Shown: piece by piece, positions 6,878 through 26,807 of the stretch | How positions within the stretch are numbered: position 1 is the first letter of the stretch | Layout of the letters: every line of letters starts with the position of its first letter | NCBI GenBank assembly: GCA_964587605.1 | Contig: CAZPNN010000436.1 | Span: 1-38,041, forward strand | Reading direction: 5' to 3' | DNA: 38,041 bases | From: an uncultured Chromatiaceae bacterium | GTDB taxonomy: Bacteria > Pseudomonadota > Gammaproteobacteria > Steroidobacterales > GCA-2729495 | Program-made: the position numbers and the translations under genes | The notes under the pieces: generated by a model | Told to the model about the DNA's origin: nothing | What the model saw: the letters and a program-made list of their open reading frames with translations, nothing else | Database searches by the model: none

Positions 6878-6905
6878 TCTATCCTGTGTCGACGTTTTTA
6901 ACGCG

Positions 6906-7814
6906 ATGATCATTCCGTCCATGTCCTTCCGCACCCGCGCTGACGCCTACGTGGCCCGCATCGAAGGCGTACTTGATCGCTATTTGCCCGCGGTCGACGT
7001 CGCGCCGCAACGGCTGCACGAGGCCATGCGCTATTCCACCCTCGGCGGTGGCAAGCGTATCCGCCCCATCCTGGTCTACGCGGCTGGCGAGGCATTGCAG
7101 ATATCAGTCGACATTCTGGACGCGCCGGCAGCCGCGATCGAATTGATGCATGCCTTTTCGCTGATCCACGACGATCTGCCCGCCATGGACGACGACGACC
7201 TCCGGCGCGGCCGGCCGACGACCCACCGCGCCTACGATGAGGCCACAGCCATCCTCGCCGCCGACGCCATGCAGCCCCTCGCCTTCGAAATTCTCGCCAC
7301 ACACCCGGCGCTCCGCGGGCACCCTGCCGCCCAGGTCAAACTGGTCGCGTTGATCGCTGATGCCTGTGGATCCAATGGCATGACCGGCGGACAGTCGATG
7401 GATCTGGCTGCCGAAGGGCGGCGCATCGACCCTGCCCAACTGGAGCACATCTACAGGCTCAAGACCGGCCGCCTGCTGCGCGCCAGTGTGCTGGCGGCAA
7501 CCTGTTGCCGGAGCGACCTGCCCAACCCGACCCTGCACGCGCTGGAGCGTTTCGTTGATGCCCTGGGGTTGGCCTTTCAGGTGCAGGACGACATTCTCGA
7601 CATCGAGGGCAGCACCGCTGAGACCGGCAAGACCGGTGGTTCGGACCAGGCCAAGGACAAGGCCACCTACCCGCACCTGTTCGGCATGTCCCGGGCCCGG
7701 GAGCGGGCTGATGAGCTGCTGCAGCAGGCAGTGGGGGCACTGGCGGATTTCGGCGCGGAATATGATGGCCTGCGTTGGGCGGCGCGTTATATCGTGCTGC
7801 GGCGGCGGGACTGA
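6906..7814 (+). CDS. ispA: Farnesyl diphosphate synthase (polyprenyl synthetase)
   Basis: First Asp-rich motif LIHDDLPAMDDDDLRRGRPT and second motif FQVQDDILD. Length is 302 aa. Confidence 0.9.
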   Translation: MIIPSMSFRTRADAYVARIEGVLDRYLPAVDVAPQRLHEAMRYSTLGGGKRIRPILVYAAGEALQISVDILDAPAAAIELMHAFSLIHDDLPAMDDDDLRRGRPTTHRAYDEATAILAADAMQPLAFEILATHPALRGHPAAQVKLVALIADACGSNGMTGGQSMDLAAEGRRIDPAQLEHIYRLKTGRLLRASVLAATCCRSDLPNPTLHALERFVDALGLAFQVQDDILDIEGSTAETGKTGGSDQAKDKATYPHLFGMSRARERADELLQQAVGALADFGAEYDGLRWAARYIVLRRRD

Positions 7815-7836
7815 CAGCCTGCTAGTCTGAGTCCTG

Positions 7837-9523: not shown

Positions 9524-10213
9524 ATGTCCTTCATCCTGGATGCCCTGCGCAAGAGCGATGCTGAACGGCAGCGCACCGTAACGCCGGGACTCGCCGACGC
9601 TCGCTACGCCGCACCGCGCTCGCGGCGCACTATCTGGTGGCTGCCGATCCTGGTGGTTGTGCTTGCCGCGAACGGGGTCTTCATGGCAATGCAATGGTTT
9701 GACCGTAGTGCTAACGCGCCGGCGCCGGAACCCGTCGTTTCGATCCCGGCCCCAGATACGGAATCACCCCGACCGTCGGACATCCGCCCGCTGGCCCGCG
9801 AAAGTGAGTTCGGCGAACCACTGTTCGAGCCGCCCCTGGAGATTGAGCGCGATCCGCCGATGGTCCAGGAAATGGCCGAGCCGGCGCCGGCGGCGCCCGG
9901 GCCGGCACCTGAATTTGCCGCGGCCGCCGAGGTGCCGGCTGCCCCGGCCAGCGCCAAGCCATCGCGAATCATCGCGGGCAATGAACTGCCGACCACCGAG
10001 CAGTTGATCGGTTCCGGGACGCTGAACATTCCACTGCTGAATCTCGACCTGCACGTCTACAGCAATCAGCCTGCCAGCCGTTTTGTGGTCATCAACACCC
10101 GCAAGTACAAGGAAGGCGAACAACTTAAGGAAGGCCCGACAATTGAAAGCATCACCAGTAACGGGATTGTGCTGTCCAGTCAGGGCCGCCGGTTTACACT
10201 GCTCCGCAAGTGA
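9524..10213 (+). CDS. gspB: GspB/ExeB-like general secretion pathway protein B
   Basis: MSFILDALRKSDAERQR N-terminus, one TM segment, a Pro/Ala-rich linker and a conserved C-terminal domain. It lies directly downstream of exeA. Confidence 0.7.
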   Translation: MSFILDALRKSDAERQRTVTPGLADARYAAPRSRRTIWWLPILVVVLAANGVFMAMQWFDRSANAPAPEPVVSIPAPDTESPRPSDIRPLARESEFGEPLFEPPLEIERDPPMVQEMAEPAPAAPGPAPEFAAAAEVPAAPASAKPSRIIAGNELPTTEQLIGSGTLNIPLLNLDLHVYSNQPASRFVVINTRKYKEGEQLKEGPTIESITSNGIVLSSQGRRFTLLRK

Positions 10214-12045
10214 AACCTCACCTCCCCTTGCGTATCGCCTACCTCGATGGCCGTCGCTTTCAGCGACTGCTGCTCGGGGGCATCTCGCGTCTCATCGGTG
10301 AGCGGGGACACCTGGACCGGATCAACGTCTTTCCGGTACCCGACGGCGACACAGGCACCAATCTCGCACTGACCTTCACTGCCGTTGGCGAGAGGCTGAC
10401 AACCACCTCCACACGCCACGCCGGTGAACTGCTGACCGCGGCAGCCGACGCCGCGCTGGATGGTGCTCGGGGCAATTCCGGCGCCATCTTTGCGCAGTAC
10501 CTGCAGGGACTCAGCGAGTCGCTGGCCGGGCACGAGCGCGTCCGTCCCGAGGAGCTCGCGCTGGCGCTGGCCACCGCCGAAAACTTTGCCCGCAGCGCTA
10601 TCCAGAACCCGGCCGAGGGCACGGTACTGACCGTCATGCGCGACATTGCCGCCGCCGTCGCACCCGGCCAGCTGCCCGAGAAATCCGACTTTCCAACACT
10701 ACTGACGGCGCTGCTCAACCGGGCACGAGAAGCCGTCGCCACCACCCGGAAAACCCTGGCCTCAATGCGCAACGCCGGGGTTGAGGATGCGGGCGCGCGC
10801 GGCCTGCTCGTGCTGCTGGAGGGGATGGCCGACGCCCTGCAGCCGGGCCTCGCGCCCGCCATACCGGCTGTCGAGGACGGTGATCCCGCCGCCCGCAGCG
10901 CCGCCGATCTTGGTCACACCGGTCCGCTGGAACACCGCTATTGCACTGAGTGCCTGATCACGGGCCCGAAGGTCGACCGGGACGGCCTGCGGACCGAACT
11001 GGCCGGCATCGGCAGCAGCGTGGTCGTGGTCGGTGGAGCCACCAAGGCGCGCCTCCACGTGCACGTCAACGACCCGGTTGCTGCCTTCACCATCGCCCGG
11101 CGCTACGGGAAGGTCTCGGCGGAAAAGGCCGACGACATGGAGCGCCAGGAACGTTCGCTGAAGGCCGATGGGCGTCGCGTCGCAATCGTTGCGGACTCCG
11201 GCGCCGATTTGCCGCCCGCCATCTGGGACAAGTTCGGCATTCAGATGGTGCCGCTGCGCGTGAATTTTGGCAGCGAAAGCCACCTCGACAAGGTCGGCAT
11301 GACAGCCGCAGGCTTCTGGGCGGAACTCGGCAGGAATCCCGAGCATCCCAAGACCTCGCAGCCGCCGCCCGGTGATTTTCGCCGCGCCTACGAACTGCTC
11401 TCATCACACTTCGAACACGTTGTGGCAGTCATCCTCACGAGCCGGCTCAGTGGCACCTACCAGGCCGCGCAGTCCGCGGCCAGCCGGATGAGTAAACCCG
11501 GCCAGCTGACCGTTATCGACAGCAAGAACGTCTCGGTCGGGCACGGCCTGGTCATGCTGTGCGCGGCTGAGAATGCCCAGGCGGGCAAGTCCCCCGCGGA
11601 AGTTGTCGCGGCCGCCGAACGGTCGGCGGCCTGCACGCGCACTTACGGCGCGGTGCCGGATCTGAGCTACACAGTGCGGGGCGGCCGCATTCGGCAGCCG
11701 TGGCGCTGGCTGGCTCGCGCGTTGCCACTCAGTTTCCTGCTGGGCACCACCGCGAAGGGCGGCGTCAAGGTCCGGGGAATCCTGCCCCGGGGAGGTGACC
11801 TGGTGTCCGCGCTTCTACGCCTGGTCACCCAGGACCGGCTCCTGAAGTCCGGTTCGGCTTCGTTGCGCCTGGCCATCGCCCATGCCAACGCGCCAGACGC
11901 GGCAGAAGCGCTGCGGATTGCCTGCATCGCGGCCTTTCCGAACCTGGAGTCGATCCTGGTTGCGGATCTCGGCCCGGCCTACAGCGTGCACGCCGGACCG
12001 GGCACGCTCGCCCTGGCCGTTCAGGAATACCAGCCACCCGCCTGA
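10210..12045 (+). CDS. DhaL/DAK2-domain (FakA-like) and DegV (FakB-like) fusion protein
   Basis: N-terminal INVFPVPDGDTGTNL (DAK2/DhaL) motif. The middle region has YCTECLI...ARLHVHVNDP as in YloV/FakA proteins. The C-terminal ~280 aa begin VAIVADSGADLPP, which is DegV-like. The GTG start overlaps the gspB stop (GTGA). Confidence 0.75.
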   Translation: MKPHLPLRIAYLDGRRFQRLLLGGISRLIGERGHLDRINVFPVPDGDTGTNLALTFTAVGERLTTTSTRHAGELLTAAADAALDGARGNSGAIFAQYLQGLSESLAGHERVRPEELALALATAENFARSAIQNPAEGTVLTVMRDIAAAVAPGQLPEKSDFPTLLTALLNRAREAVATTRKTLASMRNAGVEDAGARGLLVLLEGMADALQPGLAPAIPAVEDGDPAARSAADLGHTGPLEHRYCTECLITGPKVDRDGLRTELAGIGSSVVVVGGATKARLHVHVNDPVAAFTIARRYGKVSAEKADDMERQERSLKADGRRVAIVADSGADLPPAIWDKFGIQMVPLRVNFGSESHLDKVGMTAAGFWAELGRNPEHPKTSQPPPGDFRRAYELLSSHFEHVVAVILTSRLSGTYQAAQSAASRMSKPGQLTVIDSKNVSVGHGLVMLCAAENAQAGKSPAEVVAAAERSAACTRTYGAVPDLSYTVRGGRIRQPWRWLARALPLSFLLGTTAKGGVKVRGILPRGGDLVSALLRLVTQDRLLKSGSASLRLAIAHANAPDAAEALRIACIAAFPNLESILVADLGPAYSVHAGPGTLALAVQEYQPPA

Positions 12046-13831: not shown

Positions 13832-14407
13832 TCAAGTGCGGCTGATGAGCGTGAGCTGGATGAGAGACAGGCGCGTGGCCGTGAGTACCGGGCCAGCCGG
13901 AATGGTGGCGGCCCGCACCAGATCGGGCCACAGGCGCGGATGCCGACAAAACCGCGCCTCAAGGCACTCGGAGGCAACCGCGGCGGTGCGTTGCAGATCG
14001 CGGAAAGCGGCACTGCTGAGATGCTCCACGGTCAGGCTTCCGGGCCCGATGCACAGGGCCGCCAGCAGGCGATCCTGCCGGGCTGTGTGCCACAGCCAGG
14101 CCAGCAGGGAGGCGGCGAACAGGCGCGCGGCATCCGCCTGCGGCCCACGGGCCGCCAGCAACGGCGGTTCCGCTACACCCGGCGCCGTCAACCGCGGGGG
14201 AAGTACCGTAAAGGCCGCCAGCAAACAGGGCGTGGCGGCGACGGCCTCGAGCGCCGCCGGGGCCAGCTGCCGGAGCCGCTGCCGTACGGCCGGGTCCAGG
14301 CCGTAAGCCGCTCCGGGGCTGCCATCGGCACGGATCAGCTCCAGAAACTCGCGGTTGAACTCGTGAATTTCCCGGCGAACCTGTGAATCGGGCCATTTGC
14401 TCGCCAT
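13832..14407 (-). CDS. Hypothetical protein, tentatively FlhD-like (possibly two tandem FlhD-like repeats)
   Basis: The probable start is ATG 14407; the 5' ORF extension crosses the AT-rich promoter region. YGLDPAVRQRLRQLAPAALEAVAATPCLLAAF resembles E. coli FlhD [34 protein letters not shown]. A second similar stretch is GPGSLTVEHLSSAAFRDLQRTAAVASECLEARF. The gene is divergent from the FlhC-like gene and lies 48 nt upstream of the ABC exporter genes. Confidence 0.45.
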   Translation of the reverse strand: MASKWPDSQVRREIHEFNREFLELIRADGSPGAAYGLDPAVRQRLRQLAPAALEAVAATPCLLAAFTVLPPRLTAPGVAEPPLLAARGPQADAARLFAASLLAWLWHTARQDRLLAALCIGPGSLTVEHLSSAAFRDLQRTAAVASECLEARFCRHPRLWPDLVRAATIPAGPVLTATRLSLIQLTLISRT

Positions 14408-14442
14408 TTGCACACTTCCCCCGGGTGACCAGACTGTACTAT

Positions 14443-14464
14443 AAATGGTCCGAATCGACCAAAT
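14443..14464. promoter_or_regulatory. Operator-like site 1: AAATGGTC-N6-GACCAAAT
   Basis: Inverted repeat (core TGGTC/GACCA) in the AT-rich divergent intergenic region. It is adjacent to a minus-strand TATAGT (14438-14443). Confidence 0.4.
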
Positions 14465-14483
14465 AAACATTCTTATCACCATG

Positions 14484-14505
14484 ATTTGGTCCAAATGGAC
14501 CAAAT
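14484..14505. promoter_or_regulatory. Operator-like site 2: ATTTGGTCC-N4-GGACCAAAT (perfect 9-bp arms)
   Basis: Perfect palindrome arms seen directly. It shares the TGGTC..GACCAAAT core with site 1, with centres about 41 bp apart. It lies just upstream of the FlhC-like RBS and start. Confidence 0.45.
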
Positions 14506-14526
14506 CTATTGAAAGTCGAGGGAAAC

Positions 14527-15078
14527 ATGCGTGCCACAGACAACCGCTACGCGGGCGAACGGGAGCGCTTCGACCTGGCCATCCGGATGATCGGGCACGA
14601 GGCCCGGACGGGCACGATCCGCCAGTGCACGGGATTCACCGAGGACCGGATCCGGAAGATTTACGCCAGTTACTTCCCGGGTGGCGACAACGTGCGTCGG
14701 CGCCGTGGCAAGACCCCCAGCCAGATCGCCCCGTTTGTCAGCTCGGCCCGCCGGCAGGGCGAAGCCAGCCTGCTGATCGGCCTGTTCGTCGTTTCCGAAG
14801 TCATGCAGCCGGACGGGGACAGCCGCACGCTGCGGGCCGTCGCCGAGACGGGGGTCAAGCTGGGCAACGGGCTGTGCGATGCCTTCGAGGCATACCGGGC
14901 GATGCACCCGGAGCCGCAGCTGTCCTTCGAATGGACCTGGAATCTGTACCGGTGCGTGGTGTCACGGCGGGAACTGCAGCTCGCCTGGTGCGCGCTGTGC
15001 GAAGGGCCGTACGTGCAGGATGCCTACGCCCTCGACTACCGGCGCTGCCCGTTTTGCGAAGTGAAAGATCATGCGTAA
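14527..15078 (+). CDS. FlhC-family transcriptional regulator (non-flagellar context)
   Basis: [33 protein letters not shown] aligns with E. coli FlhC [65 protein letters not shown] aligns with [31 protein letters not shown]. The zinc-site pattern CxxC-N15-CxxC is conserved. ATG 14527 is preceded by GAGGGA; the ORF track starts at TTG 14509. Confidence 0.7.
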   Translation: [183 protein letters not shown]

Positions 15079-15087
15079 CCTGACCGG

Positions 15088-16020
15088 ATGATTCGCGTCA
15101 CCTTCACGGGCTCGGGTGTGGAGCGCTTTTCCGCGCTGCGCCAGCAGCCGGAGGCACTCGCGGCGGCCTTTGCCGAACCGGAGGCGCGTTTCGTGCCGAT
15201 CTGGCAATCGCGCTGCCTGCTTCGCGACGGCGCTATCGCGGTCTGCCAGCGGGAAGAGATCGAGGTTTTGGTCACCAGCCCCGAGGGGGCGGTTTTTCTC
15301 GGGCGGCGCGAGGGGCGCGCGCTCTTTGCTGTCGAGGTCCGCGGCGACACACCACCGGCCAATCTCCCGGCCGAGGGCTTTCGTGGCCTGCGCGAAGTCG
15401 TCGGCGAGGTGAGCGCGGCCGACGCGGCGCTGCTGGCCTACGCCCGCGCCATGATTCTCTGGCAGGAGCGCCACCGGCACTGCGGTGTGTGCGGCGCGCC
15501 GAACCGGGCTACCGAGGGTGGCTTTGTCATGGCCTGCACAGGCGACGGCTGCGACCACAAGAGCTTTCCCCGCATCGACCCCGCCGTAATCGTGCTGGTA
15601 CACCGGGGCGAGCACTGCCTGCTCGGCCGCCAGGCCACCTGGCCCGAGGGCCGTTTTTCCACGATCGCCGGCTTCGTCGAACCCGGCGAGTCGCTGGAAG
15701 ACGCCGTAGCCCGGGAAGTCCACGAGGAAACAAATATCCGGGTCGGTGAGTGCCGCTACCTCGCGTCGCAACCCTGGCCGTTCCCGGCCGCGATGATGCT
15801 GGGTTTTCACGCCGAGGCGCTGAGCGAGGACATCCGCTTCAATGATGGCGAACTCGTGGAAGCCCGCTGGCTCACGCGACAGGAGATTCGAGCGGGTGCC
15901 ATCGGCCTGCCGCCGCGCGAGTCAATTGCCTTCCAGTTAATTGAACACTGGTTTGACAGTGACAAGGGTAAGCCCTTGGCCAGCCTTGGTTTCGACAGCC
16001 CAATGTTCCGCCGGCCCTGA
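15088..16020 (+). CDS. nudC: NAD+ diphosphatase / NADH pyrophosphatase
   Basis: Zinc ribbon CGVCGAPN...CTGDGC followed by Nudix box GFVEPGESLEDAVAREVHEETNI. It starts 9 nt after the FlhC-like stop. Confidence 0.85.
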   Translation: MIRVTFTGSGVERFSALRQQPEALAAAFAEPEARFVPIWQSRCLLRDGAIAVCQREEIEVLVTSPEGAVFLGRREGRALFAVEVRGDTPPANLPAEGFRGLREVVGEVSAADAALLAYARAMILWQERHRHCGVCGAPNRATEGGFVMACTGDGCDHKSFPRIDPAVIVLVHRGEHCLLGRQATWPEGRFSTIAGFVEPGESLEDAVAREVHEETNIRVGECRYLASQPWPFPAAMMLGFHAEALSEDIRFNDGELVEARWLTRQEIRAGAIGLPPRESIAFQLIEHWFDSDKGKPLASLGFDSPMFRRP

Positions 16021-16030
16021 CGCTGAACCC

Positions 16031-16792
16031 ATGTGCCTGATCGCCATCGCCTGGAACGCCCATCCGCGTTACCCACTGATCCTGCTCGGTAACCGCGACG
16101 AGTTTCATCAGCGGCCTAGCGTGGCGGCGGACTGGTGGCCGGAAGCACCGGACGTGTTCGGCGGCCGGGACCTTAAGGCCGGTGGGAGCTGGCTCGGCGT
16201 GAGCCGAAGCGGTCGGCTGGCCGTGGTCACGAACAACCCGCTGCGGCCCCCGGCAGCTGACCGTCACCTGAGCCGTGGCGCGCTGGTTCGTGACTGGCTT
16301 ACGGGCACGTCCGCAGCCGGTCCGTTCCTCGACGCCGTAGACAGGGACGAAGCGCGGTACGCGGGCTTCAGCCTGCTGGTTGGCACACTGGATCAGGGAC
16401 TTGAGGGCATCGTCGCGCCGGCCGGCACGCTTGGTGCGCGCTGGCAGTTGCCCGCCGGTATCACGGCACTCTCGAATTCCCCGCGGGAAACGCCGTGGCC
16501 GAAGGTCGGCTGGTTACAGCGCGCGCTCGAAGATTACCTGCGCCGACCCGAGGTCGAGACGGAAGAACTGCTGGCCCTGGCTGGCCGGCGCATGCCGGTG
16601 GCAGAGCCGGCGGGCGACACCCCGCAAGACCGGGCCCGCGTCACGCCGTTTGTCACCGGGACCGACTACGGCACGCGCGCGGCCACCCTGATCCTGGCCA
16701 ATGCGCGTGGCGGCTGGCAGTGCATCGAGCGGCGCTTCGGCCCGGGTGGTGTCCCGGCCGGCGAGTCGCAGGGGCGTCACTCGTCGCCGTAG
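16031..16792 (+). CDS. NRDE-family (TANGO2-like, DUF833) protein
   Basis: N-terminus is MCLIAIAWNAHPRYPLILLGNRDEF. ATG 16031 lies after the nudC stop; the ORF-track 5' extension overlaps nudC. Confidence 0.75.
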   Translation: MCLIAIAWNAHPRYPLILLGNRDEFHQRPSVAADWWPEAPDVFGGRDLKAGGSWLGVSRSGRLAVVTNNPLRPPAADRHLSRGALVRDWLTGTSAAGPFLDAVDRDEARYAGFSLLVGTLDQGLEGIVAPAGTLGARWQLPAGITALSNSPRETPWPKVGWLQRALEDYLRRPEVETEELLALAGRRMPVAEPAGDTPQDRARVTPFVTGTDYGTRAATLILANARGGWQCIERRFGPGGVPAGESQGRHSSP

Positions 16793-17415: not shown

Positions 17416-17443
17416 TTGACACCCGCAGCGATCTGGATACTAT
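17416..17443 (+). promoter_or_regulatory. Candidate sigma70 promoter for argR (TTGACA-N16-TACTAT)
   Basis: Consensus -35 hexamer and a near-consensus -10 hexamer. It is followed by two TATGYGCAT repeats (17441-17449 and 17461-17469) spaced 20 bp apart. Confidence 0.4.
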
Positions 17444-17478
17444 GCGCATCCCTTCGAGCTTATGTGCATGGAGTACTA

Positions 17479-17943
17479 GTGCCCATTTCGGCCGAACAAC
17501 GCGAGCAGCGGCAGCAGGCGATCCTGAAGATCCTGCGGCGGCAGCACGTGTCGCGGCAGGACGAACTGGTAGATCTGCTTCACAAGCGGGGCATAGAGGC
17601 CACCCAGTCCAGCATCAGCCGGGACCTGCACCAGCTCGGGATTTCCAAACTGGACCAGGAGTACCGGCCGGTTGCCGACGGTGAGGAGGCCGACACCGGC
17701 CGCGAGCTCGACGTGCTGGCGGAGTTCGTGCTCGAAACCCGGACGGCAGGGCCGTACCAGACTGTCGTGAAAACGGCGGTTGGCGCGGCCGGACAGGTGG
17801 CGCTGGCGCTGGACCGCAGTGCCTGGCCGGAGATTGTGGGCACAGTGTCCGGCGACGATACGATTTTCATCGCCACCCGCACGGGCGGCGACCAGCGTCG
17901 GCTCGTGGCAAAACTGCGAGCGCGGTTTAACAGCGGTACCTGA
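17479..17943 (+). CDS. argR: Arginine repressor
   Basis: Winged-helix region ILRRQHVSRQDELVDLLHKRGIEATQSSISRDLHQLGISK and C-terminal GDDTIFIATR. GTG 17479 has GGAG 5 nt upstream and gives about 154 aa; the ORF track starts at 17416. Confidence 0.8.
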   Translation: MPISAEQREQRQQAILKILRRQHVSRQDELVDLLHKRGIEATQSSISRDLHQLGISKLDQEYRPVADGEEADTGRELDVLAEFVLETRTAGPYQTVVKTAVGAAGQVALALDRSAWPEIVGTVSGDDTIFIATRTGGDQRRLVAKLRARFNSGT

Positions 17944-18008: not shown

Positions 18009-19235
18009 ATGACGACCCAGAAGAACAGCGCCTCACCGATCATCCTCGGCTTCTCGGGCGGGCTCGACACGTCCTTTTGTGTGCCCTGGCTGAAGGAGCA
18101 CTACGGGCGGCCGATCGTCACCGTGACGATCAACACGGGGGGCATCGACGCCGAGGCCGAGAAGGACCTGGAGCGCCGGTCAAAGGCGCTCGGCGCCATC
18201 GAGCACGTGCTGGTGGAGGCCCGCTCCGTGTTCTTCGAGCGGGTGCTGAAGTACCTGATCTTTGGCAACGTCCGGCGTGGCCACCTGTACCCGCTGTGCG
18301 TGGGCGCCGAGCGCGGCATCCAGGCAACATTACTCGCCGAACTGGCCCGCGCGAGGGGCAGCCAGACCGTGGCCCACGGCTGCACGGCCGCCGGCAACGA
18401 CCAGGTGCGCTTCGAAATCGCGCTGCGGACGATCGCCCCGGGACTCGAAGTGCTGGCGCCCGTTCGCGACCAGGGCTTCATCCGGACCGAGCAGCAGACC
18501 TACCTGGAACAGCACGGCTTCCCCGTGCCGGCGAAGGGCTCTGCGTATTCCATTAATCGTGGCCTGTGGGGCGTGACGATCGGCGGTCGGGAAACGCTGG
18601 ACTCGAAGGAGTCCATTCCGGAAGACGCCTGGGTGTTGTCCGCCAGTGCCTTCGACAAGCCGCGGCCAGCCGCACGGCACACGATCAGCTTCACGCAGGG
18701 CGTGCCAACCGCGCTCGACGGCAAGGCCATGGACCCGGTGACACTCATTGAAACGCTGGAAACGGTTGCCGGCCCCTACGGCATCGGCCGCGGCATCCAC
18801 GTTGGCGACACGGTGCTCGGCACCAAGGGCCGGGTGGCCTTCGAGGCGCCGGCGGCCGACATCCTGCTGACCGCACACCGCGAACTCGAGAAGCTCGTAC
18901 TCTCCGGCCCGCAGCAGCGGATCAAGGACCAGGTCGCCACCCAGTACGGCGACTTCATCCACGAGGGCAAGCAGCTCGACCCGGTGTGCCGGGATATCGA
19001 GGCCCTGCTCAGCTCGGCACAGCAGCGGGTGACCGGCGACGTGAAGATCGTGCTCCGGCCCGGCAACCTGTTCATCGAAGGCGCGCTCTCGCCGCACTCG
19101 CTGTTGGCGGCGACGAAGGGTGTCTACGGCGAGAAGGCCGGCGAGTGGACGCCCGCCGATGCGCTGGGATTCTCCCGGATCCTCTCCCTGCCCGGCACGC
19201 TGCAGACGCGGGCCGCGGGCGGCAAGCCGCAATAA
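18009..19235 (+). CDS. argG: Argininosuccinate synthase
   Basis: N-terminal PP-loop ILGFSGGLDTS. Length 408 aa, colinear with ArgG. Confidence 0.9.
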   Translation: MTTQKNSASPIILGFSGGLDTSFCVPWLKEHYGRPIVTVTINTGGIDAEAEKDLERRSKALGAIEHVLVEARSVFFERVLKYLIFGNVRRGHLYPLCVGAERGIQATLLAELARARGSQTVAHGCTAAGNDQVRFEIALRTIAPGLEVLAPVRDQGFIRTEQQTYLEQHGFPVPAKGSAYSINRGLWGVTIGGRETLDSKESIPEDAWVLSASAFDKPRPAARHTISFTQGVPTALDGKAMDPVTLIETLETVAGPYGIGRGIHVGDTVLGTKGRVAFEAPAADILLTAHRELEKLVLSGPQQRIKDQVATQYGDFIHEGKQLDPVCRDIEALLSSAQQRVTGDVKIVLRPGNLFIEGALSPHSLLAATKGVYGEKAGEWTPADALGFSRILSLPGTLQTRAAGGKPQ

Positions 19236-19261: not shown

Positions 19262-20317
19262 ATGAAAACCATTATCGCCGACAAGATCGCCTCCGTTGCC
19301 CAGCACCTGAATCTCAAGCGGGAGCTGCGCGTGAGCGCGGAGCTGCCCTGCGAGGAGGGCGTGCTGATCGCCGCCGAGGTGCTAAATAACAAGAGCAACT
19401 ACAACCAGCTGGAGCTCACCAGCGGGCGCATGGCCGTGGTCAAGAAGGGCGACATCGTGGTCGGCGCGCTCGGCCACCGGAAGGCGCTGTTCGGCTACTC
19501 CGGCCACATTCCCGGGACGCTCGCCGTCGGCGACACGCTTCAGCTGCTGAACATGGGTGGCGTCATCGGCGTTTGCGACTCGATCAATGCCAGCTTCGGC
19601 CAGCCCTTCGATGTGCGCGTGCTCGGCACCGTGCTCGACTTCCCCTTCCTCGGCGAGCGCATCGGCGTGCCGGCACGGGTCGGCATGGAGAAGCTTGTTG
19701 TTGACCCACCCCTGGATACGCGGGGCGTGCCGGTCGTGGCCATCGCGGGGACGTGCATGAACTCGGGCAAGACGGCGGCGGCCTGTGCCATCGTCAGCCG
19801 GCTGCGGCACCACGGGCACACGGTCGATGTCTTCAAGGCCACTGGCGTGGCGCTCCGCCGGGACATCCTCGCCATGGAGGACGCCGGAGCACGGTCGTCG
19901 CTGATCTTTTCCGACTTCGGCGTGGTCTGCACGACGGGCAAGAACGGTCCCGCGGTCACCCGCATGATGCTGACCAGGCTCGCCGCCCAGAAACCGGACG
20001 TGATCGTCTACGAACTCGGCGATGGCATTCTCGGCGCCTACGGTGTGGAGGCCATCCTGCGTGACGAAGGGATAAGGGCCTCCCTTCACTGCCTTGTGCT
20101 GTGCGCCAATGATCCGGTTGCCGCCTGGGGTGGCGTGAAACTGTTGCGGGAGGATTTCGGCATCGAGCCTGCCATCGTCACGGGGCCGGCCACCGACAAC
20201 GACGTGGGCAAGGAGATCATCGTCCAGCGCATGGGCGTGAAGGCGATCAACGCGGTCACCGAGTCCATGCAGATCGGCGACGCCGTCGCCTCGCACCTTA
20301 AGCTTAAGCTGGCATGA
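19262..20317 (+). CDS. Uncharacterised protein with a DTBS/CobQ-like P-loop domain, embedded in the arg operon
   Basis: 351-aa ORF with protein-like composition; the antisense ORF is Arg-rich junk. Walker A-like GTCMNSGKT (aa 163-171), Walker B-like DVIVYELGDG (aa 246-255), and an unrecognised beta-rich N-terminal ~150 aa. The stop overlaps the argC start (ATGA). Confidence 0.7.
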   Translation: MKTIIADKIASVAQHLNLKRELRVSAELPCEEGVLIAAEVLNNKSNYNQLELTSGRMAVVKKGDIVVGALGHRKALFGYSGHIPGTLAVGDTLQLLNMGGVIGVCDSINASFGQPFDVRVLGTVLDFPFLGERIGVPARVGMEKLVVDPPLDTRGVPVVAIAGTCMNSGKTAAACAIVSRLRHHGHTVDVFKATGVALRRDILAMEDAGARSSLIFSDFGVVCTTGKNGPAVTRMMLTRLAAQKPDVIVYELGDGILGAYGVEAILRDEGIRASLHCLVLCANDPVAAWGGVKLLREDFGIEPAIVTGPATDNDVGKEIIVQRMGVKAINAVTESMQIGDAVASHLKLKLA

Positions 20318-21372
20318 GCACCCGGGTTCCGGCCCTGATCGTTGGCGGCACGGGCTACGTGGCGGGCGAGCTGCTGCGGCTCGTTGCGCAGCACCCGCAT
20401 CTGGAGCTCCGTGGCGTCTCGTCGGAGAGCCAGGCTGGCACGAAGGTGAGTGCGGCCTTTACGCACCTGGCCCCGGTTGTTCACGAGCTCGCCTTCATCA
20501 CCCAGGCTGAACTGGCCACGAAGTTCAGCGGGCCGAAAGTCGCACTGTTCTGCGCTGCGCCTCACGTGGTTAGCGCCGGGGTGGTTGCCACGCTGCTGAA
20601 GGCCGCGTCGACGGCCGGCAGCCAGGCGGTGGTTGTGGACGTCTCGTCGGATTTTCGCTTCCGGAACGCGGCGGACTTTGAGGCCGTCTACAAGGAGCCG
20701 CACGGCGCACCGGAGTTGCTGCCGGATTTCGTCTGCGCAATGCCCGAGCACATTTCCGGCATTCCCGCCCTCCATGTCGGTCACCCGGGCTGCTTCGCCA
20801 CGGCCATGCTCGCCGGCCTCGTGCCGCTTTCGAAGCTCGGCCTGAACGACGGACCTGTCTATGCCGTGGGAATTACCGGCAGCACTGGCGCCGGGCGCTC
20901 GCCGATCGCCACGACCCATCACCCGGAGCGGCACTCGAACCTCTTCGCGTACAACCCGCTGAAGCACCGGCACGCCCCGGAAGTGGTGCAGATCTGCAAG
21001 CAGCTGACGGGCGTGGCGCCGGAACTCAACTTTGTCCCGCACTCAGGTCCGTTTGCCCGCGGCATCCACATGACCCTGCAGTGCCGGCTCGCAAGACCGC
21101 AGACCGCAGACCAGCTTCGGGAAGCCTTCGCCAACTTCTACGCCGGCCACGAATTCGTGCGGGTCGTGGACGGCACGCCACGCGTGAAAGATGTCGTCGG
21201 CAGCAACTACTGCCACATCGGCGTTTCGGCATCCGGCCAGAGCGCCGTGGTGCTGGTGGCCATCGACAACCTGGTGAAGGGCGCCGCCGGCGGCGCCGTG
21301 CAATGGATGAACCGGCTGCTCGGAATGCCGGAGTCGGCGGGGCTCAGCGCCCCGGCGATCGGCTGGATATAG
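20314..21372 (+). CDS. argC: N-acetyl-gamma-glutamyl-phosphate reductase
   Basis: N-terminal Rossmann motif IVGGTGYVAGELLRL and active-site Cys context HPGCFATA. Confidence 0.9.
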   Translation: MSTRVPALIVGGTGYVAGELLRLVAQHPHLELRGVSSESQAGTKVSAAFTHLAPVVHELAFITQAELATKFSGPKVALFCAAPHVVSAGVVATLLKAASTAGSQAVVVDVSSDFRFRNAADFEAVYKEPHGAPELLPDFVCAMPEHISGIPALHVGHPGCFATAMLAGLVPLSKLGLNDGPVYAVGITGSTGAGRSPIATTHHPERHSNLFAYNPLKHRHAPEVVQICKQLTGVAPELNFVPHSGPFARGIHMTLQCRLARPQTADQLREAFANFYAGHEFVRVVDGTPRVKDVVGSNYCHIGVSASGQSAVVLVAIDNLVKGAAGGAVQWMNRLLGMPESAGLSAPAIGWI

Positions 21373-21388: not shown

Positions 21389-22543
21389 ATGACGACGACA
21401 TCCCGACAGGCTGAGGCGCGCCACCTGCTGCAGGTCTACGGCCAGCTGCCGCTGGAAGTCACATCGGCCGAAGGCGTGTACCTGCACGCGGGCAAGCGCC
21501 GCATTATTGACCTCTACGGCGGCCACGCCGTGGCGGCGCTGGGCTATGCGCACCCCGATCTGCTGGCGGCTCTGACGGCGCAGGCAAAGACCATGTACTT
21601 TCAGAGCAATGCCGTGGCGCTCGACGTCCGGGCGAAGGCGGGCGACGCGCTTGCCGCGTTCGCTCCCGCCGGGCTCAATCGCGTGTTCTTCGTCAACAGC
21701 GGCGCCGAGGCCAACGAGAACGCCTTGCGCGTGGCTTGCCGGGCCACCGGCCGGTCCCGGATCCTGGCCATCGAACACGGCTTCCACGGCCGGACGGCCG
21801 CCGCCGCCGCCGTGACCTGGGGCGCGGCAAAAGGCTGGTACGGTTTTCCGCGTACCCCGTTTGACGTGGATTTCATCCCGCGGGATGACGTGGCCAGCGC
21901 CGAGGCAATGATCAACGGCGAGACCGCCGCAGTCATCATCGAGCTCGTGCAGGGGCTCGCCGGTGCATACGACCTGGACACTGGTTTCGTACTGACCGTC
22001 GCCGAGGCTTGTCGCCGGGCCGGCGCACTCCTGATCATCGACGAAGTCCAGAGCGGCGTCGGACGCACCGGGGCGCCGTTTGCCGCCGATCTCTACGGGA
22101 TCAGGCCCGACATGCTGACCACCGCCAAGGCGCTGGGCGGCGGCTTTCCGTGCAGCGCGCTCCTGATGACGGAAGCGCTCGCGGGCACGCTGAAGTCCGG
22201 CGATCTCGGCACCACCTTCGGGGGCGGCCCGATGGCCTGCGCTCTGGTGAGTACCGTCATCGAGGTGATCCGGCGGGACCGGCTGATGGACAACGTCAAA
22301 GCCTTGTCCGCGGCGATCCGCAAAAGCGCGCTCGTGGGACCGGTGGAAGGCATCCAGGGTCGCGGCTTCCTGCTCGGGCTGCGCTGCCGTGGGCCGGCCC
22401 GGGATGTGCAGGCTGCACTTCTGGAACGGGACGTACTGGTTGGCACCAGCTCGGACCCGAAGGTCATCCGGCTGCTGCCGCCACTGACACTTGAGCAGCA
22501 GCATGTGGATAAACTTGTCAACGCGCTTTCTGATATCGGGTAA
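21389..22543 (+). CDS. argD: Acetylornithine aminotransferase (class III PLP aminotransferase)
   Basis: Motifs GGHAVAALGYAHP, LLIIDEVQSGVGRTG and TTAKALGGGFP (PLP Lys). Confidence 0.85.
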   Translation: MTTTSRQAEARHLLQVYGQLPLEVTSAEGVYLHAGKRRIIDLYGGHAVAALGYAHPDLLAALTAQAKTMYFQSNAVALDVRAKAGDALAAFAPAGLNRVFFVNSGAEANENALRVACRATGRSRILAIEHGFHGRTAAAAAVTWGAAKGWYGFPRTPFDVDFIPRDDVASAEAMINGETAAVIIELVQGLAGAYDLDTGFVLTVAEACRRAGALLIIDEVQSGVGRTGAPFAADLYGIRPDMLTTAKALGGGFPCSALLMTEALAGTLKSGDLGTTFGGGPMACALVSTVIEVIRRDRLMDNVKALSAAIRKSALVGPVEGIQGRGFLLGLRCRGPARDVQAALLERDVLVGTSSDPKVIRLLPPLTLEQQHVDKLVNALSDIG

Positions 22544-22568: not shown

Positions 22569-23582
22569 ATGGGACTCAAACTTTTCAACGACCTCGCCGA
22601 CTTCAGCATTGCGGACGTGGAGGCAATGCTGGCGCTGGCACGCCGACTGCAGAGCAAACCGGAGCCCCGCGCCCTCGAAGGCAAGGTGCTCGCCCTGCTG
22701 TTCCTGAGTCCGTCCCTGCGCACGCTGTCGTCATTCCAGGCGGCGATGGTGCGGCTCGGCGGCGGCTCGTTCGTGATCTCGCCCGACATGTCCATCCACG
22801 GTCTCGAATCCCGCTCCGGAATCGTGATGGACGGCATGGCAGCCGAGCACCTGCGCGAGGCGATTCCGGTGATCAGCTCCTACGGCGATGCGCTGGGCAT
22901 CCGCGCGTTCGCCAACCGGGAAAAGCTGGAAACCGACCTCGCTGACACCGAGTTTCTGGCGATGCGCGAGCTGGCCAGCGTGCCCCTGATCAACATGGAA
23001 TCCGCCATCCAGCACCCCTGCCAGAGCCTTGCCGACTGGAAGACGATGGACGAACTGAAAGTGCCGAAGAAGGGTGGCAAGTTCGTGCTGTCCTGGTCCT
23101 GGCACCCGAAGGCCTTGCCGCTGGCCGTGCCTTCCGCAACCCTGCACATGGCCGCCATGCGCGGCATGGACGTCACCGTCGTCCGGCCCGACGGCTTCGA
23201 GCTGCCGCCGTCCATCATGGACAAGGCGCGGAAGGCGGCCAGCCTTTCGGGCGGTTCCGTGCGCGAGACCAATAACCGGGCCGAAGCCTATGCAGGTGCG
23301 CACGTGATCTACGCCAAGGAATGGTCGTCGACCAGGCACTACGGCGATCGTGTGGCCGACCAGAAACTGCGCGAACCGCTGCAGGACTGGATCGTGGACG
23401 AACCGACCTTCGCCACCGCCGACCCGTCGGCGCGCCTGATGCACTGCCTGCCGGTGCGGCGGGGCGTGGCGGTCACGGATCGCGTGCTCGACGGCCCACG
23501 CAGCGTGGTGATCCACGAGGCGCAAAACCGCATGTGGGGCCAGATGGCCGTGGTTTACCAGATGATGGGTCCGGGAGCCTGA
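22569..23582 (+). CDS. argF': N-acetylornithine carbamoyltransferase-type transcarbamylase (ArgF')
   Basis: Colinear with my recollection of Xanthomonas AOTCase: INMES..HPCQ, SWSWHPKALPLAV and HCLPVRRGVAVTD. ATG 22569 has an AAGGA RBS; the ORF-track start at 22491 overlaps argD. Confidence 0.8.
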   Translation: MGLKLFNDLADFSIADVEAMLALARRLQSKPEPRALEGKVLALLFLSPSLRTLSSFQAAMVRLGGGSFVISPDMSIHGLESRSGIVMDGMAAEHLREAIPVISSYGDALGIRAFANREKLETDLADTEFLAMRELASVPLINMESAIQHPCQSLADWKTMDELKVPKKGGKFVLSWSWHPKALPLAVPSATLHMAAMRGMDVTVVRPDGFELPPSIMDKARKAASLSGGSVRETNNRAEAYAGAHVIYAKEWSSTRHYGDRVADQKLREPLQDWIVDEPTFATADPSARLMHCLPVRRGVAVTDRVLDGPRSVVIHEAQNRMWGQMAVVYQMMGPGA

Positions 23583-23586
23583 CACC

Positions 23587-24519
23587 ATGCAAAGTCACGA
23601 TAGGGATGTCGTCGTATCGGCCCTCAAGCACGCGGCGCCATACATCCGGCTCTACAAGAAAAAGATTTTCGTCCTCAAGGCAGGCGGGGAAGTCTTCGCC
23701 TCCGACGAGGCCACGGCGCATCTGCTGGAGCAGGTGGCGCTGCTGCACCAGGTGGGCGTCCGCGTGGTGCTCGTGCACGGGGGCGGCCCACAGTTGACAG
23801 AACTGGCCGAGGCACTCGGTGTACCCACCCGGATGGTCGGCGGCCGGCGCGTGACCGACAAGCAGACCCTCGACGTCACGACGATGGTCCTGAACGGCAA
23901 GGTCAACACGCGAATACTTGCCGCCTGCCGCGACCTGCACTTGCCGGCCGTGGGCATCAGCGGCATCGATGCCGGGCTGATCAGGGCTCTCAAGCGCCCG
24001 CCAGTCGAGGTCGAGGGTCATGACGGCGGCCCGGTGGACTTCGGCTTCGTCGGCGACATCGTCGGCGTGGACACGGACGTGATCCGGGCCCAGCTCGACA
24101 ACGGCATGGTGCCGGTCGTCAGCCCGCTCTCGGCCGACGACAAGGGCACGGTGCTGAATATCAACGCCGACACCGTCGCAGCCGCACTCGCCACGGCGCT
24201 CGGCGCCTCCAAGCTGATTATCACGATGGGTGCGCCGGGCATCCTCGAGGACCGGCACGACCCGTCGTCACTCGTGTCCTACCTGGACCTGGAGGATCTG
24301 CAGGAGCTGCGCGCGAACGGCTCACTGGCCGAGGGAATGCTGCCGAAGGCGCGGGCCATCGAGGCGGCGATCAAGGGCGGCGTGCCGCGCGTGCATCTGA
24401 TCTCGTACAAGATTCCCGACAGCCTGCTGCTGGAGATCTTCACCAACGAAGGCACCGGTACGCTGGTTGTCAACGACACGGACACGTTGACGCCGGAAGA
24501 ACAGGAAGCTGGTGCCTGA
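23587..24519 (+). CDS. argB: Acetylglutamate kinase (kinase only, no GNAT domain)
   Basis: Motifs FVLKAGGEV, VLVHGGGPQ and NINADTVA. Length 310 aa. Confidence 0.9.
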   Translation: MQSHDRDVVVSALKHAAPYIRLYKKKIFVLKAGGEVFASDEATAHLLEQVALLHQVGVRVVLVHGGGPQLTELAEALGVPTRMVGGRRVTDKQTLDVTTMVLNGKVNTRILAACRDLHLPAVGISGIDAGLIRALKRPPVEVEGHDGGPVDFGFVGDIVGVDTDVIRAQLDNGMVPVVSPLSADDKGTVLNINADTVAAALATALGASKLIITMGAPGILEDRHDPSSLVSYLDLEDLQELRANGSLAEGMLPKARAIEAAIKGGVPRVHLISYKIPDSLLLEIFTNEGTGTLVVNDTDTLTPEEQEAGA

Positions 24520-24531
24520 GGGGGCTCCGCC

Positions 24532-25719
24532 ATGAAACGTCTCTGGGACAAGGGCGAACCGCTCGACTCGCGAATCCTCCGCTACACGGCCGGCGAGGAT
24601 CACCTGCTTGACGCGCGACTGGTGTCCTACGATGTCCGCGCCTCGATTGCTCACGCCCAGATGCTGGGCGCGCAGAAGCTGCTGTCCGCCGATGATGTCG
24701 CGCTGATCATCGGCGGACTCGAGTCGCTCGCGGTGTCGCACGCCGCCGGGGAGTGGACAATCAGCCTCGAAGACGAGGACTGTCACACGGCGCTGGAACA
24801 GCACCTCACGCAAATGATCGGCGAAGCCGGCCGGCGCGTGCACCTCGGCCGCTCGCGCAACGACCAGGTCCTGGCCGCCCTGCGCCTGTACCTGCTGGAC
24901 GCCGCTGCTGGCATCGCGGCCGCGGCTTCGGACGTGGCCACAGCACTCGACGAGCTCGCCGCGCGGGAGCAATCAACCGTGCTGCCCGGCTACACCCACA
25001 TGCAGCAGGCCATGCCCAGTTCCGTGCCGTTGTGGGCCGGCGGCTTTGCCGCCGAACTGCGTGATGACGCCGATGGCATCACGGCCAGTCGTCGGCGCCT
25101 CAGCAAGAATCCGCTCGGCAGTGCGGCGGGCTACGGTGTGCCGGGCCTGCCGATCGATCGTGAAGCAACGCGCCGCACGCTGCACTTCGACGCCGTGCAC
25201 GAACCCGTCACCGCGGTGCAGATTTCGCGCGGCAAGGGCGAAGCCGGGCTGGTCTTCGAGTTGTGCCTGCTGACCCAGGACCTGGGCCGGATGGCCGCCG
25301 ACCTCCTGCTGTTCTATACGCAGGAGTTTCGCTTCGTCTCGCTACCGGAATCGATGACGACCGGCTCGTCGATCATGCCCCAGAAGCGCAACCCGGATGT
25401 GCTCGAACTGGTGCGCGGGGCGGCGCCCACCCTGCAGGCGGCACTGGTTGAAATTCTCGCCCTGCCCGCCAAGCTCGGTTCCGGCTACCAGCGCGATCTG
25501 CAGCGGATGAAGTCGCCGCTGTTCCGCGCCATCGACCTCGCCGGTGACTCCGCCCGGGTGATGGCGCACCTGATCCGGGGGCTCAGTTTCCTGCCGGAAA
25601 ACATCCACCTCGACGACTCGATACACGCCGCCGAGCGGGCCAACGCGCTGGTCCTGAAGGAAGGCATCAGCTTCCGGGAGGCGTATCAGCGGGTAGGTGC
25701 AGGGCTAAAGCGCGGATAG
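24532..25719 (+). CDS. argH: Argininosuccinate lyase, C-terminally short
   Basis: Fumarate-lyase signature GSSIMPQKRNPDVLE at aa 278. The protein ends at FREAYQRVGAGLKRG*, which is about 58 aa short of the E. coli ArgH C-terminus measured from the signature. The last 10 codons lie within a 30-bp repeat. Confidence 0.85.
   Translation: MKRLWDKGEPLDSRILRYTAGEDHLLDARLVSYDVRASIAHAQMLGAQKLLSADDVALIIGGLESLAVSHAAGEWTISLEDEDCHTALEQHLTQMIGEAGRRVHLGRSRNDQVLAALRLYLLDAAAGIAAAASDVATALDELAAREQSTVLPGYTHMQQAMPSSVPLWAGGFAAELRDDADGITASRRRLSKNPLGSAAGYGVPGLPIDREATRRTLHFDAVHEPVTAVQISRGKGEAGLVFELCLLTQDLGRMAADLLLFYTQEFRFVSLPESMTTGSSIMPQKRNPDVLELVRGAAPTLQAALVEILALPAKLGSGYQRDLQRMKSPLFRAIDLAGDSARVMAHLIRGLSFLPENIHLDDSIHAAERANALVLKEGISFREAYQRVGAGLKRG
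25687..25716 (+). repeat. 30-bp direct repeat copy A (CAGCGGGTAGGTGCAGGGCTAAAGCGCGGA)
   Basis: Identical at 28 of 30 positions to 26835-26864. It forms the 3' end of argH. Confidence 0.8.
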
Positions 25720-25817
25720 ACAGTTACACAAGGGAAGAGACTCGCAGCCTGCGCGACTCCTGCGCCGCCTTATACTCCTTGACCCATTCCTCCCGACCCG
25801 ACCCGCGAGGCAATCCC

Positions 25818-26807
25818 ATGCAATACACCAAGCTCGGCCGGACTGGCCTGTCTGTTTCCAGGCTGATGCTGGGCACCATGAATTTTGGCGAGTACACGAC
25901 AGAGCCGGATGCCCACCGGATACTCGACCGCGCCCTCGAGCACGGCATCAACTTCGTCGACACAGCCAACATGTACGGCGGTGCCGCCGGCCCAGGCATC
26001 ACCGAGGAGATCATCGGCCGCTGGTTCGCCCGGGGCGATGGTCGGCGCGAGCGCACCGTGCTCGCGACCAAGCTCTACGGCTCGATGAAGGGCTTTGGCC
26101 GCACCGACAACTGGCCAAACACGACACGCCTCTCCGCCGTGAACATCCGGCAGTCCTGCGACGCGTCGCTGCAGCGGCTCCAGACTGACCACATTGACCT
26201 CTACCAGATGCACCACATCGATCGGGAAACACCGTTCGACGAGATCTGGGAGGCCTTCTCTGTGCTGAAGCAACAGGGCAAGGTCACCTACTTCGGGTCA
26301 TCGAACTTCGCGGGCTGGCATCTCGCGCAGGCCCAGGAGTCCGCGCGCAATCGGGGGATGCTCGGCCTGGTGTCCGAGCAGTCCCTTTACAACCTGCGGT
26401 GCCGGACCGTGGAGCTGGAAGTCCTGCCAGCCGCGCGCGCCTTCGGCATCGGACTGATTCCCTGGTCACCCCTGGCTGGCGGTCTGCTCGGGGGCGTCCT
26501 GCGCAAGGCCCGGGAGGGGCGCAGCGCTGGCCCGATGACCACCCGGGGACTGGAGCAGCACGCCGCCACGATTCAGAAGTGGGAGGACCAGTGCGCAGAA
26601 CTGGGCGAGCACCCGGCCGACGTCGCACTCGCCTGGCTGCTGCACCAGCCGGGCGTTACAGCACCGATCATTGGGCCCCGAACCGTGGCCCAGCTCGACG
26701 GCTCGCTGCGCTCCCTGGAAATCACGCTCGGCGGGGATTTCCTCGCGCGCCTCGACGAACTCTTTCCCGGACCTGGCGGTCCCGCGCCGGAGGCCTACGC
26801 CTGGTAG
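25818..26807 (+). CDS. Aldo/keto reductase
   Basis: N-terminus is MQYTKLGRTGLSVSRLMLGTMNFG; also INFVDTANMYG and DLYQMHHID. ATG 25818 has an upstream GCGAGG. Confidence 0.85.
   Translation: MQYTKLGRTGLSVSRLMLGTMNFGEYTTEPDAHRILDRALEHGINFVDTANMYGGAAGPGITEEIIGRWFARGDGRRERTVLATKLYGSMKGFGRTDNWPNTTRLSAVNIRQSCDASLQRLQTDHIDLYQMHHIDRETPFDEIWEAFSVLKQQGKVTYFGSSNFAGWHLAQAQESARNRGMLGLVSEQSLYNLRCRTVELEVLPAARAFGIGLIPWSPLAGGLLGGVLRKAREGRSAGPMTTRGLEQHAATIQKWEDQCAELGEHPADVALAWLLHQPGVTAPIIGPRTVAQLDGSLRSLEITLGGDFLARLDELFPGPGGPAPEAYAW

Follow-up and report, generated by a model that had tools for sequence, protein, structure and literature searches.

A P-loop protein coupled to argC is a candidate N-succinylglutamate synthase of arginine biosynthesis

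An arginine operon with one uncharacterised gene

The arginine operon carried by a contig of an uncultured Chromatiaceae bacterium (NCBI GenBank assembly GCA_964587605.1, contig CAZPNN010000436.1, positions 1 to 38,041 of the forward strand; this whole stretch of 38,041 nucleotides is called the window below) raises the question of which protein carries out the first step of the pathway. Its genes lie on one strand in the order argR-argG-X-argC-argD-argF'-argB-argH and are separated, in turn, by 65, 26, -4, 16, 25, 4 and 12 nt, which bears out the first-pass annotation of the window, made from the letters alone, in its description of a run of genes with gaps of 65 nt or less or overlaps. As had also been observed there, the cluster contains no gene for an N-acylglutamate synthase or a deacylase; among the open reading frames (ORFs) of the 38-kb window there is no match to argA, argJ, argE or a GNAT protein. 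All of the neighbours of X in the operon are identified by Pfam or NCBIfam, leaving X itself (19262-20317, + strand) as the one member of the cluster that is uncharacterised. We lean, with some caution, towards the view that X makes N-succinylglutamate from L-glutamate and succinyl-coenzyme A (succinyl-CoA), thereby replacing GNAT-type ArgA and ArgJ.

X is an ORF of 351 aa with an ATG start, 7-10 nt 5' of which lies the sequence AGGA. Its end overlaps argC (20314-21372, + strand; TIGR01850 at 297 bits, cutoff 234) through an ATGA at 20314-20317, an arrangement of translational coupling: within the junction GCATGA, the ATG of argC occupies 20314-20316 and the TGA stop of X occupies 20315-20317. 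Both the reading frame and this overlap had been called correctly at the outset, as had the Walker A motif and the strand that resembles a Walker B. The protein appears to consist of two parts. Residues 1-152 (19262-19717) form a predicted beta-rich domain with the motif GALGxRxALxGxxGxxP. The remainder carries the Walker A or P-loop sequence GTCMNSGKT (residues 163-171, 19748-19774), a Lys at the end of beta-2 (Lys192, 19835-19837), the Walker-B-like strand DVIVYELGDG (residues 246-255, 19997-20026), and Asp284 within a CANDP motif (20111-20113). Searches of X against Pfam and NCBIfam gave no model above threshold; the best sub-threshold scores (MobB at 16.6 bits in Pfam and 19.6 bits in NCBIfam, AAA_26 at 13.7, and DUF1611_C at 13.1) all come from matches confined to the P-loop region.

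Insight into the acyl group of the pathway comes from ArgF' (22569-23582, + strand), the N-acylornithine carbamoyltransferase. This protein contains SWSWHPK and HCLPVRR and scores 329.9 bits against NF003384 (cutoff 288), in keeping with its first assignment to the acetyl/succinyl-ornithine family. A PDB search with ArgF' returned the N-acetylornithine transcarbamylase (AOTCase) of X. campestris, both as wild type and as 3l02, 3l05 and 3l06, and because these three differ from the wild type only at residue 92, the corresponding position of ArgF' is pinned unambiguously. It is Ala (codon 22842-22844), with VMDGMA-A-EH aligned to the VMDGDT-E-EH of AOTCase, and the top PDB match is 3l02, the chain that has Ala at this position. 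The Glu of HGLESR, which had been placed at the specificity position in the first-pass annotation, is instead residue 80 and aligns with Glu80 (WPIEFN) of the X. campestris enzyme; the Glu92 that marks an N-acetylornithine carbamoyltransferase (X. campestris numbering) is not present. According to the citation of Shi et al. 2007 in 10.1101/2024.10.14.618325, replacement of E92 in AOTCase by A, P, S or V shifts the substrate to N-succinylornithine. ArgF' is therefore of the succinylornithine (SOTCase-like) type within NF003384, and the N-acetylornithine type that had been proposed for it falls. The same residue, Ala, is found in 63 of 63 related loci in which argF' adjoins an X homologue; in distant clusters with X it is A, Q, T and A, and in none of them Glu. 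For the ArgF' neighbours of the family, position 92 has been given as one of A, P, S and V in 90% of cases (10.1101/2024.10.14.618325). The intermediates of the pathway are thus probably N-succinylated, as judged from this residue, and the product of X would then be N-succinylglutamate.

The X family and its linkage to argC

At least 7,828 homologues of X are present in a large database, all of them named hypothetical, and among the 120 that were listed none has a precomputed Pfam domain. An exhaustive profile search collected 1,653 clusters at 50% identity (E <= 1e-3), and 257 clusters at E <= 1e-30; at least 591 GTDB species representatives encode the protein. Woeseiaceae, Steroidobacteraceae and 'Chromatiales' metagenome-assembled genomes (MAGs) supply the close relatives (64-89% identity), and the MAGs closest to the X of the window are labelled 'Chromatiaceae/Chromatiales'. 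Woeseiaceae are very abundant in marine sediments. Distant relatives (27-45% identity) are found in Chloroflexota, Planctomycetes, Acidobacteriota, in Gracilibacteria and Peregrinibacteria of the Candidate Phyla Radiation (CPR), and in a MAG of the Asgard group Ranarchaeia. Across 32 diverse full-length members, residues S11, R73, P84, G169-K170-T171, K192, A210, E251 and D284 are invariant and E51 is nearly so.

The genes around X were compared in 89 loci, of which 85 could be examined for argC and 87 for argG; L008 and L063 belong to complete genomes (CP070671.1 and OZ245053.1). X is directly followed by argC in 82 of the 85 and directly preceded by argG in 76 of the 87. In Planctomycetes, Gracilibacteria, Acidobacteriota, an Asgard archaeon and others, where identity has dropped to 35-40%, the linkage to arg genes persists, and seven of eight distant homologues sit within arg clusters, immediately upstream of argC. 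The co-occurrence of X with arg genes, which the first-pass annotation had named as a check, is thereby established. The X-argC order fails in three cases: L087 holds a stand-alone copy, the assembly of L086 is frameshifted, and in L019 argC is probably degraded. (In L087, the homologue, P0297 at 7001-8032, is positioned between a gene for a PrsW protease and genes for an SMC-like protein and threonyl-tRNA synthetase. An apparent X-ArgC fusion of 549 aa on the Steroidobacteraceae-type contig of L086, P0402 at 6001-7650, was rejected as a frameshift artefact, because this contig is full of fragmented genes, with TamB in three pieces and a truncated Omp85.)

Two kinds of locus indicate which step X is likely to serve. 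In several genomes of the Steroidobacteraceae type the cluster is reduced to X-argC-argB, between unrelated genes (tamA/tamB on the upstream side and DoxX, VIT1 and other genes on the downstream side), and this free-standing unit groups X with steps 2 and 3 of the pathway. Furthermore, some distant clusters contain X together with a hydrolase gene between argB and argH: an M20 peptidase gene in a Planctomycetes cluster (L082, 13288-14355) and a gene of the AstE/AspA family (PF24827) in a Gracilibacteria cluster (L083, 12050-12916). It is plausible that both products are N-succinylcitrulline deacylases, and an AstE-type enzyme fits with succinyl chemistry. Since these clusters have a hydrolase of their own, X fits the first step, the role of ArgA, better than that of a deacylase. 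(The L083 cluster, in a MAG of the CPR, appears to be a complete arg cluster, which is notable in itself.) ArgB, the N-acylglutamate kinase, has no acyltransferase domain in the window (23587-24519, + strand; 310 aa, PF00696 only, TIGR00761 at 216 bits), as had been recognised, and it is likewise an AA_kinase protein only in all seven of the distant clusters annotated with Pfam (265-315 aa); neither a GNAT protein nor ArgJ is encoded in those seven. The broader proposal of the first-pass annotation, that X replaces one of the missing steps, is thus sustained with X as a strong candidate, and it is narrowed from either step to the first by the X-argC-argB unit and the clustered hydrolases.

The idea, with most of its comparative-genomic support, is already public in the GapMind 2026 preprint (10.1101/2024.10.14.618325), in which ACG33_RS14135, the probable Steroidobacter orthologue, is predicted to be the missing first enzyme of arginine synthesis and to make N-succinylglutamate. 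In 'Steroidobacter and related bacteria' ACG33_RS14135 is a hypothetical protein encoded among the clustered arg genes; nearly all of its homologues belong to arg operons, and they never co-occur with an ArgA of the P. aeruginosa type, and S. denitrificans grows on minimal medium although it has no recognisable ArgA, ArgE being missing as well (10.1101/2024.10.14.618325). A weak Foldseek similarity of ACG33_RS14135 to 7XRJ (at 5.6 Å root-mean-square deviation, rmsd) is also reported (10.1101/2024.10.14.618325). X is 64-70% identical to many copies from Steroidobacteraceae MAGs, which share its position in the operon and are, like X, the only hypothetical gene there; from this, and from a nearly identical Foldseek result, we infer with high confidence that X belongs to the family of ACG33_RS14135. 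The finding on X is real and biologically meaningful, and the first proposal for this gene is right in outline and wrong in its acetyl assignment.

Fold of X and candidate reactions

The full-length model of X from AlphaFold2 (AF2; predicted local distance difference test, pLDDT, 79.5) has a beta-rich N-terminal domain and a Rossmann/P-loop C-terminal domain. With this model Foldseek finds 143 matches in the PDB at E <= 1e-3, and the top 50 listed are all P-loop proteins of the SIMIBI class (FtsY, Ffh, HypB, dethiobiotin synthetase, CTP synthase, FlhF). The C-terminal domain is accordingly predicted, from the model, to have a SIMIBI-class P-loop fold, with a parallel sheet, a Walker A motif of the form GxxxxGK[ST] and an acidic residue at Walker B. 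When residues 1-152 are modelled on their own from a diverse alignment, this N-terminal domain reaches a pLDDT of 93.9 and a predicted template modelling (TM) score (pTM) of 0.86, and against the PDB it has no Foldseek neighbour: the best E value is 1.7, TM scores are below 0.25, and 7xrj is not among the top 50. It had first been described as a beta-rich domain that could not be recognised, and this description holds. Of the searches that were suggested at the time as checks on X, those of Pfam yielded no family above its cutoff, while those with Foldseek identified the class of the C-terminal domain and nothing for the N-terminal one.

A relationship to DUF1611 proteins such as DgcN had been raised in the first-pass annotation, and it survives in part. 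The PDB entry 7xrj, entitled 'N-acetyltransferase DgcN', is indeed a Foldseek match of X, at rank 7 (E = 1.8e-5, 234 columns, rmsd 5.3 Å), and the similarity, which is weak, is limited to the P-loop domain. None of the PDB searches by sequence, whether with X, A1, A2 (a sequence profile) or P0305, reached 7xrj. X matches PF07755 (DUF1611_C) over residues 156-195 only, at E = 0.062 and well below the cutoff of 25 bits. Among the 32 diverse members there are weak Pfam matches to CbiA (17 members), MobB (15), PF07755 (15) and AAA_26 (6), the strongest being E = 3.4e-6 for CbiA and E = 2.8e-4 for PF07755, and two distant members carry precomputed PF07755 matches; none of the 32 matches DUF1611_N (PF17396) at E <= 0.1. 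Because the N-terminal domain has no PDB neighbour and the PF07755 matches are weak, what X and DgcN have in common is no more than a generic P-loop domain, and the predicted architecture of X is not that of a DUF1611 protein.

If X is the N-succinylglutamate synthase, the C-terminal P-loop domain, with its GTxxxxGKT loop, Lys192, Glu251 and Asp284, would bind the nucleotide/pyrophosphate part of succinyl-CoA; this role is modelled on the remote relative DgcN, which is assumed to bind acetyl-CoA in the same way. The N-terminal beta domain, with Ser11, Arg73 and the Pro84 loop, may provide the site for glutamate and for the succinyl carboxylate at the interface of the two domains. N-succinylglutamate would then pass to ArgB and to ArgC, the latter translationally coupled to X, and the pathway would continue through ArgD and the succinyl-type ArgF' to N-succinylcitrulline.

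Several points weigh against this assignment. The absence of argA and argJ applies to the 38 kb of the window rather than to the whole genome, and the GapMind 2026 preprint reports no experiment on any member of the X family, which no other paper in the collection searched mentions; the tie between X and ACG33_RS14135 is, in addition, an indirect one. The likeness of X to DgcN is no better than its likeness to signal recognition particle (SRP) GTPases, HypB, dethiobiotin synthetase or CTP synthase, and the N-terminal domains of X and DgcN are unrelated. When the sequence profile A2 is searched against the PDB, the sole matches are chains of BioD (E = 2.6e-4), not DgcN. Around one distant homologue, the solitary copy in L087, arg genes are absent within 7 kb; either this copy could be a paralogue whose function differs, or that genome could have its arg genes scattered. 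Finally, because the clade of X has no recognisable N-acylcitrulline hydrolase, there is a second gap in the pathway that competes for X.

The similarity to BioD is central to the alternative that best survives, in which X catalyses the same step without CoA, as an ATP-dependent amide ligase of the dethiobiotin-synthetase, CobQ or CTP-synthase type. Here a carboxylate of succinate would be phosphorylated and then attacked by the alpha-amino group of glutamate, giving N-succinylglutamate, ADP and Pi; such an enzyme would combine a P-loop domain resembling that of dethiobiotin synthetase with a beta domain at the N-terminus that, by the model, has no known structural relative. The alignment of A2 with BioD, the top PDB match of the profile, runs from the P-loop GTxxxxGKT to the invariant Lys192, a span of only about 40 residues, and sets Lys192 on the Lys of 'CKPV' in BioD, which we take to be its catalytic Lys37. 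Both the GTxxxxGKT loop and a Lys after beta-2, as expected of an amidoligase, are therefore present, and the Walker A Lys and Thr together with E251 are invariant down to 27% identity, as would be expected for Mg-NTP chemistry. DgcN has a lower target-normalised TM score (0.41) than HypB (0.63) or dethiobiotin synthetase (0.51-0.60), and CbiA and AAA_26 matches in the family are as frequent and as strong as those to DUF1611. Since the P-loop domain is no worse a match to dethiobiotin synthetase than to DgcN, an ATP-dependent ligase stays a candidate. On the other hand, the AAA_26 score of X falls far below the cutoff of 27 bits, conservation of the P-loop is equally expected for CoA binding, and DgcN, the only relative with an activity that forms an N-acyl-glutamate, is described as an acetyltransferase. 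DgcN uses acetyl-CoA without ATP, and we know of no enzyme that ligates succinate to an amino acid in this manner. On these grounds the ligase is rather doubtful as the function of X.

It has also to be considered that X might not be catalytic at all, and might serve ArgC and ArgB as an accessory NTPase (for instance as a regulator, as a scaffold through which the labile N-acylglutamyl phosphate is channelled, or as a SIMIBI protein akin to a metallochaperone) while the true acyl-glutamate synthase is encoded elsewhere in the genome, beyond the 38 kb for which its absence is known. Many SIMIBI relatives among the Foldseek matches, such as HypB, FlhF and the SRP proteins, are GTPase or ATPase switches or chaperones, MobB is the top match of X in both Pfam and NCBIfam, and coupling to ArgC would suit a partner of that enzyme. 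Such a role is nonetheless unlikely, given that S. denitrificans is prototrophic without a recognisable N-acylglutamate synthase, that the family is never found with ArgA of the P. aeruginosa type, and that the conserved, glycine-rich N-terminal domain with its invariant Arg and Ser resembles a ligand-binding or catalytic site.

A further possibility is that X is an ArgJ-like transacylase: by moving the succinyl group from N-succinylcitrulline to glutamate, with succinyl-CoA needed for priming only, a single protein would close both the ArgA and the ArgE gaps in genomes of the Woeseia/Steroidobacter type. ArgJ performs such a transfer in the acetyl cycle, and both functions are missing from S. 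denitrificans and from the cluster of the window. We know of no precedent for acyl-enzyme transfer chemistry in a fold like that of X, and distant clusters such as L082 and L083 contain a hydrolase gene in addition to X. In addition, the insertion FPFLGERIGVPAR (residues 126-138), which is clade-specific, does not follow the absence of a clustered deacylase, since L084 and L085 are without both, and we consider the transacylase very improbable. Equally improbable is a role of X as the missing deacylase, hydrolysing N-succinylcitrulline or N-acylornithine in place of ArgE: no ArgE-like gene is present in the cluster, S. denitrificans shares this lack, and X occupies what is presumably the place of argE' in Xanthomonas-type clusters, but the P-loop NTPase fold is no known amidohydrolase scaffold, X shares its cluster with an M20 peptidase or an AstE/AspA-family protein in L082 and L083, and the X-argC-argB mini-unit ties it to early steps rather than late ones.

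If X is the N-succinylglutamate synthase, the first committed step of arginine synthesis would be carried out in these organisms by a P-loop protein unrelated to GNAT enzymes or to ArgJ, and the N-succinyl variant of the pathway would reach well beyond the Bacteroidetes. That X is either a new ATP-dependent N-acyl ligase (joining succinate and glutamate at the expense of ATP) or an ArgJ-like transacylase that doubles to close the deacylase gap is a tentative possibility of lesser weight; were it so, X would represent a third, mechanistically unrelated solution to the first arginine step. There is a practical side as well. As genes of the X family are annotated as hypothetical, metabolic reconstructions made without the GapMind update could score such genomes as arginine auxotrophs. 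Beyond what was already public, the present work contributes X-argC-argB as a core unit, hydrolases of the AstE type and of M20 encoded in clusters with X, the breadth of the family including CPR and Asgard members, the N-terminal domain without a PDB structural neighbour, and the BioD-like features that support an ATP-dependent candidate mechanism.

Other genes of the window and known systems

The remaining genes of the operon, all on the + strand, are readily assigned. The arginine repressor gene argR (17416-17943; PF01316, PF02863, TIGR01529) has an uncertain exact start, as the Pfam match begins only at residue 28. It is followed by argG for argininosuccinate synthase (18009-19235; PF00764, PF20979, and TIGR00032 at 288 bits, cutoff 268), and, beyond argC, by argD for N-acylornithine aminotransferase (21389-22543; PF00202, TIGR00707). 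The last gene, argH (24532-25719; TIGR00838 at 292 bits, cutoff 279.5), encodes a short form of argininosuccinate lyase. It has 395 aa, its counterpart in L001 has 396 aa, and the lyases of the distant clusters have 436-470 aa; the protein of the window covers positions 23-388 of the 455 in TIGR00838, with only a fragment of ASL_C2. A C-terminally shortened lyase thus seems, from these sequences, to be typical of the clade of X. An aldo/keto reductase gene (25779-26807) lies between argH and polA and is apparently a local insertion, because polA directly follows argH in most related loci.

Upstream of argR are a NUDIX gene of the NADH-pyrophosphatase type (15088-16020) and a gene of the TANGO2 family (15941-16792; N-terminal MCLIAI...NRDE). 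Both are present upstream of argR in most loci of the Woeseia/Steroidobacter type, though they lie outside the operon and the distant clusters lack them. TANGO2 is Ntn-hydrolase-like. Because the clade has no recognisable N-succinylcitrulline desuccinylase, the TANGO2 protein is a passing candidate for this activity, by virtue of the conserved neighbourhood alone.

Elsewhere, this GC-rich gammaproteobacterial window contains a mevalonate-pathway cluster (3207-7814), composed of a gene like that for 3-hydroxy-3-methylglutaryl-CoA (HMG-CoA) synthase (3207-4703), a GHMP kinase gene (4685-5890, - strand), a diphosphomevalonate-decarboxylase-like gene (5799-6815, - strand) and a polyprenyl synthetase gene (6906-7814). 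A 611-aa protein (10210-12045), conserved in L001, combines Dak2, FakA-like_M and DegV domains and is an apparent fusion of the two fatty-acid-kinase subunits. An FlhC-like gene (14509-15078; PF05280, E = 7.6e-7) adjoins a divergent ORF (13832-14503, - strand) whose counterpart in L001 gives a faint FlhD match; judged by these matches, the two genes of the region 13832-15078 resemble a regulator pair of the FlhDC type that has diverged; an ABC-2 transporter lies beside them.

Among known systems, the canonical enzymes with the role proposed for X are ArgA (AAK and GNAT domains), ArgJ, the bifunctional ArgA/B of Xanthomonas, and the GNAT protein BT3761. The GNAT and DmpA/ArgJ folds of the canonical N-acylglutamate synthases have no kinship, in sequence or in fold, with the P-loop and beta domains of X. 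BT3761 of Bacteroides (B. thetaiotaomicron), which lies in the arg operon of a succinyl-type pathway, is alone among N-succinylglutamate synthases in having experimental support, of a genetic kind, and it too is unrelated to X. The P-loop domains of BioD, CobQ, CobB and CTP synthase resemble that of X in the identical spacing of the P-loop, the Lys after beta-2 (K192) and the acidic end of the Walker B strand; in contrast to BioD, X has an extra N-terminal domain of 150 residues. DgcN (D-glutamate N-acetyltransferase, DUF1611, 7XRJ) shares with X a C-terminal SIMIBI P-loop domain with a loop of the GTxxxxGKT type, and its reaction, an N-acylation of glutamate, is of the type proposed for X. 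However, DgcN acts on D-glutamate with an acetyl group in catabolism, whereas X would act on L-glutamate with a succinyl group in biosynthesis. The closest parallel is ACG33_RS14135, which like X is a hypothetical protein in an arg cluster, has a weak likeness to 7XRJ, and neighbours an ArgF' without Glu92. Nothing of substance distinguishes the two, and the copy in the window comes from another gammaproteobacterial lineage.

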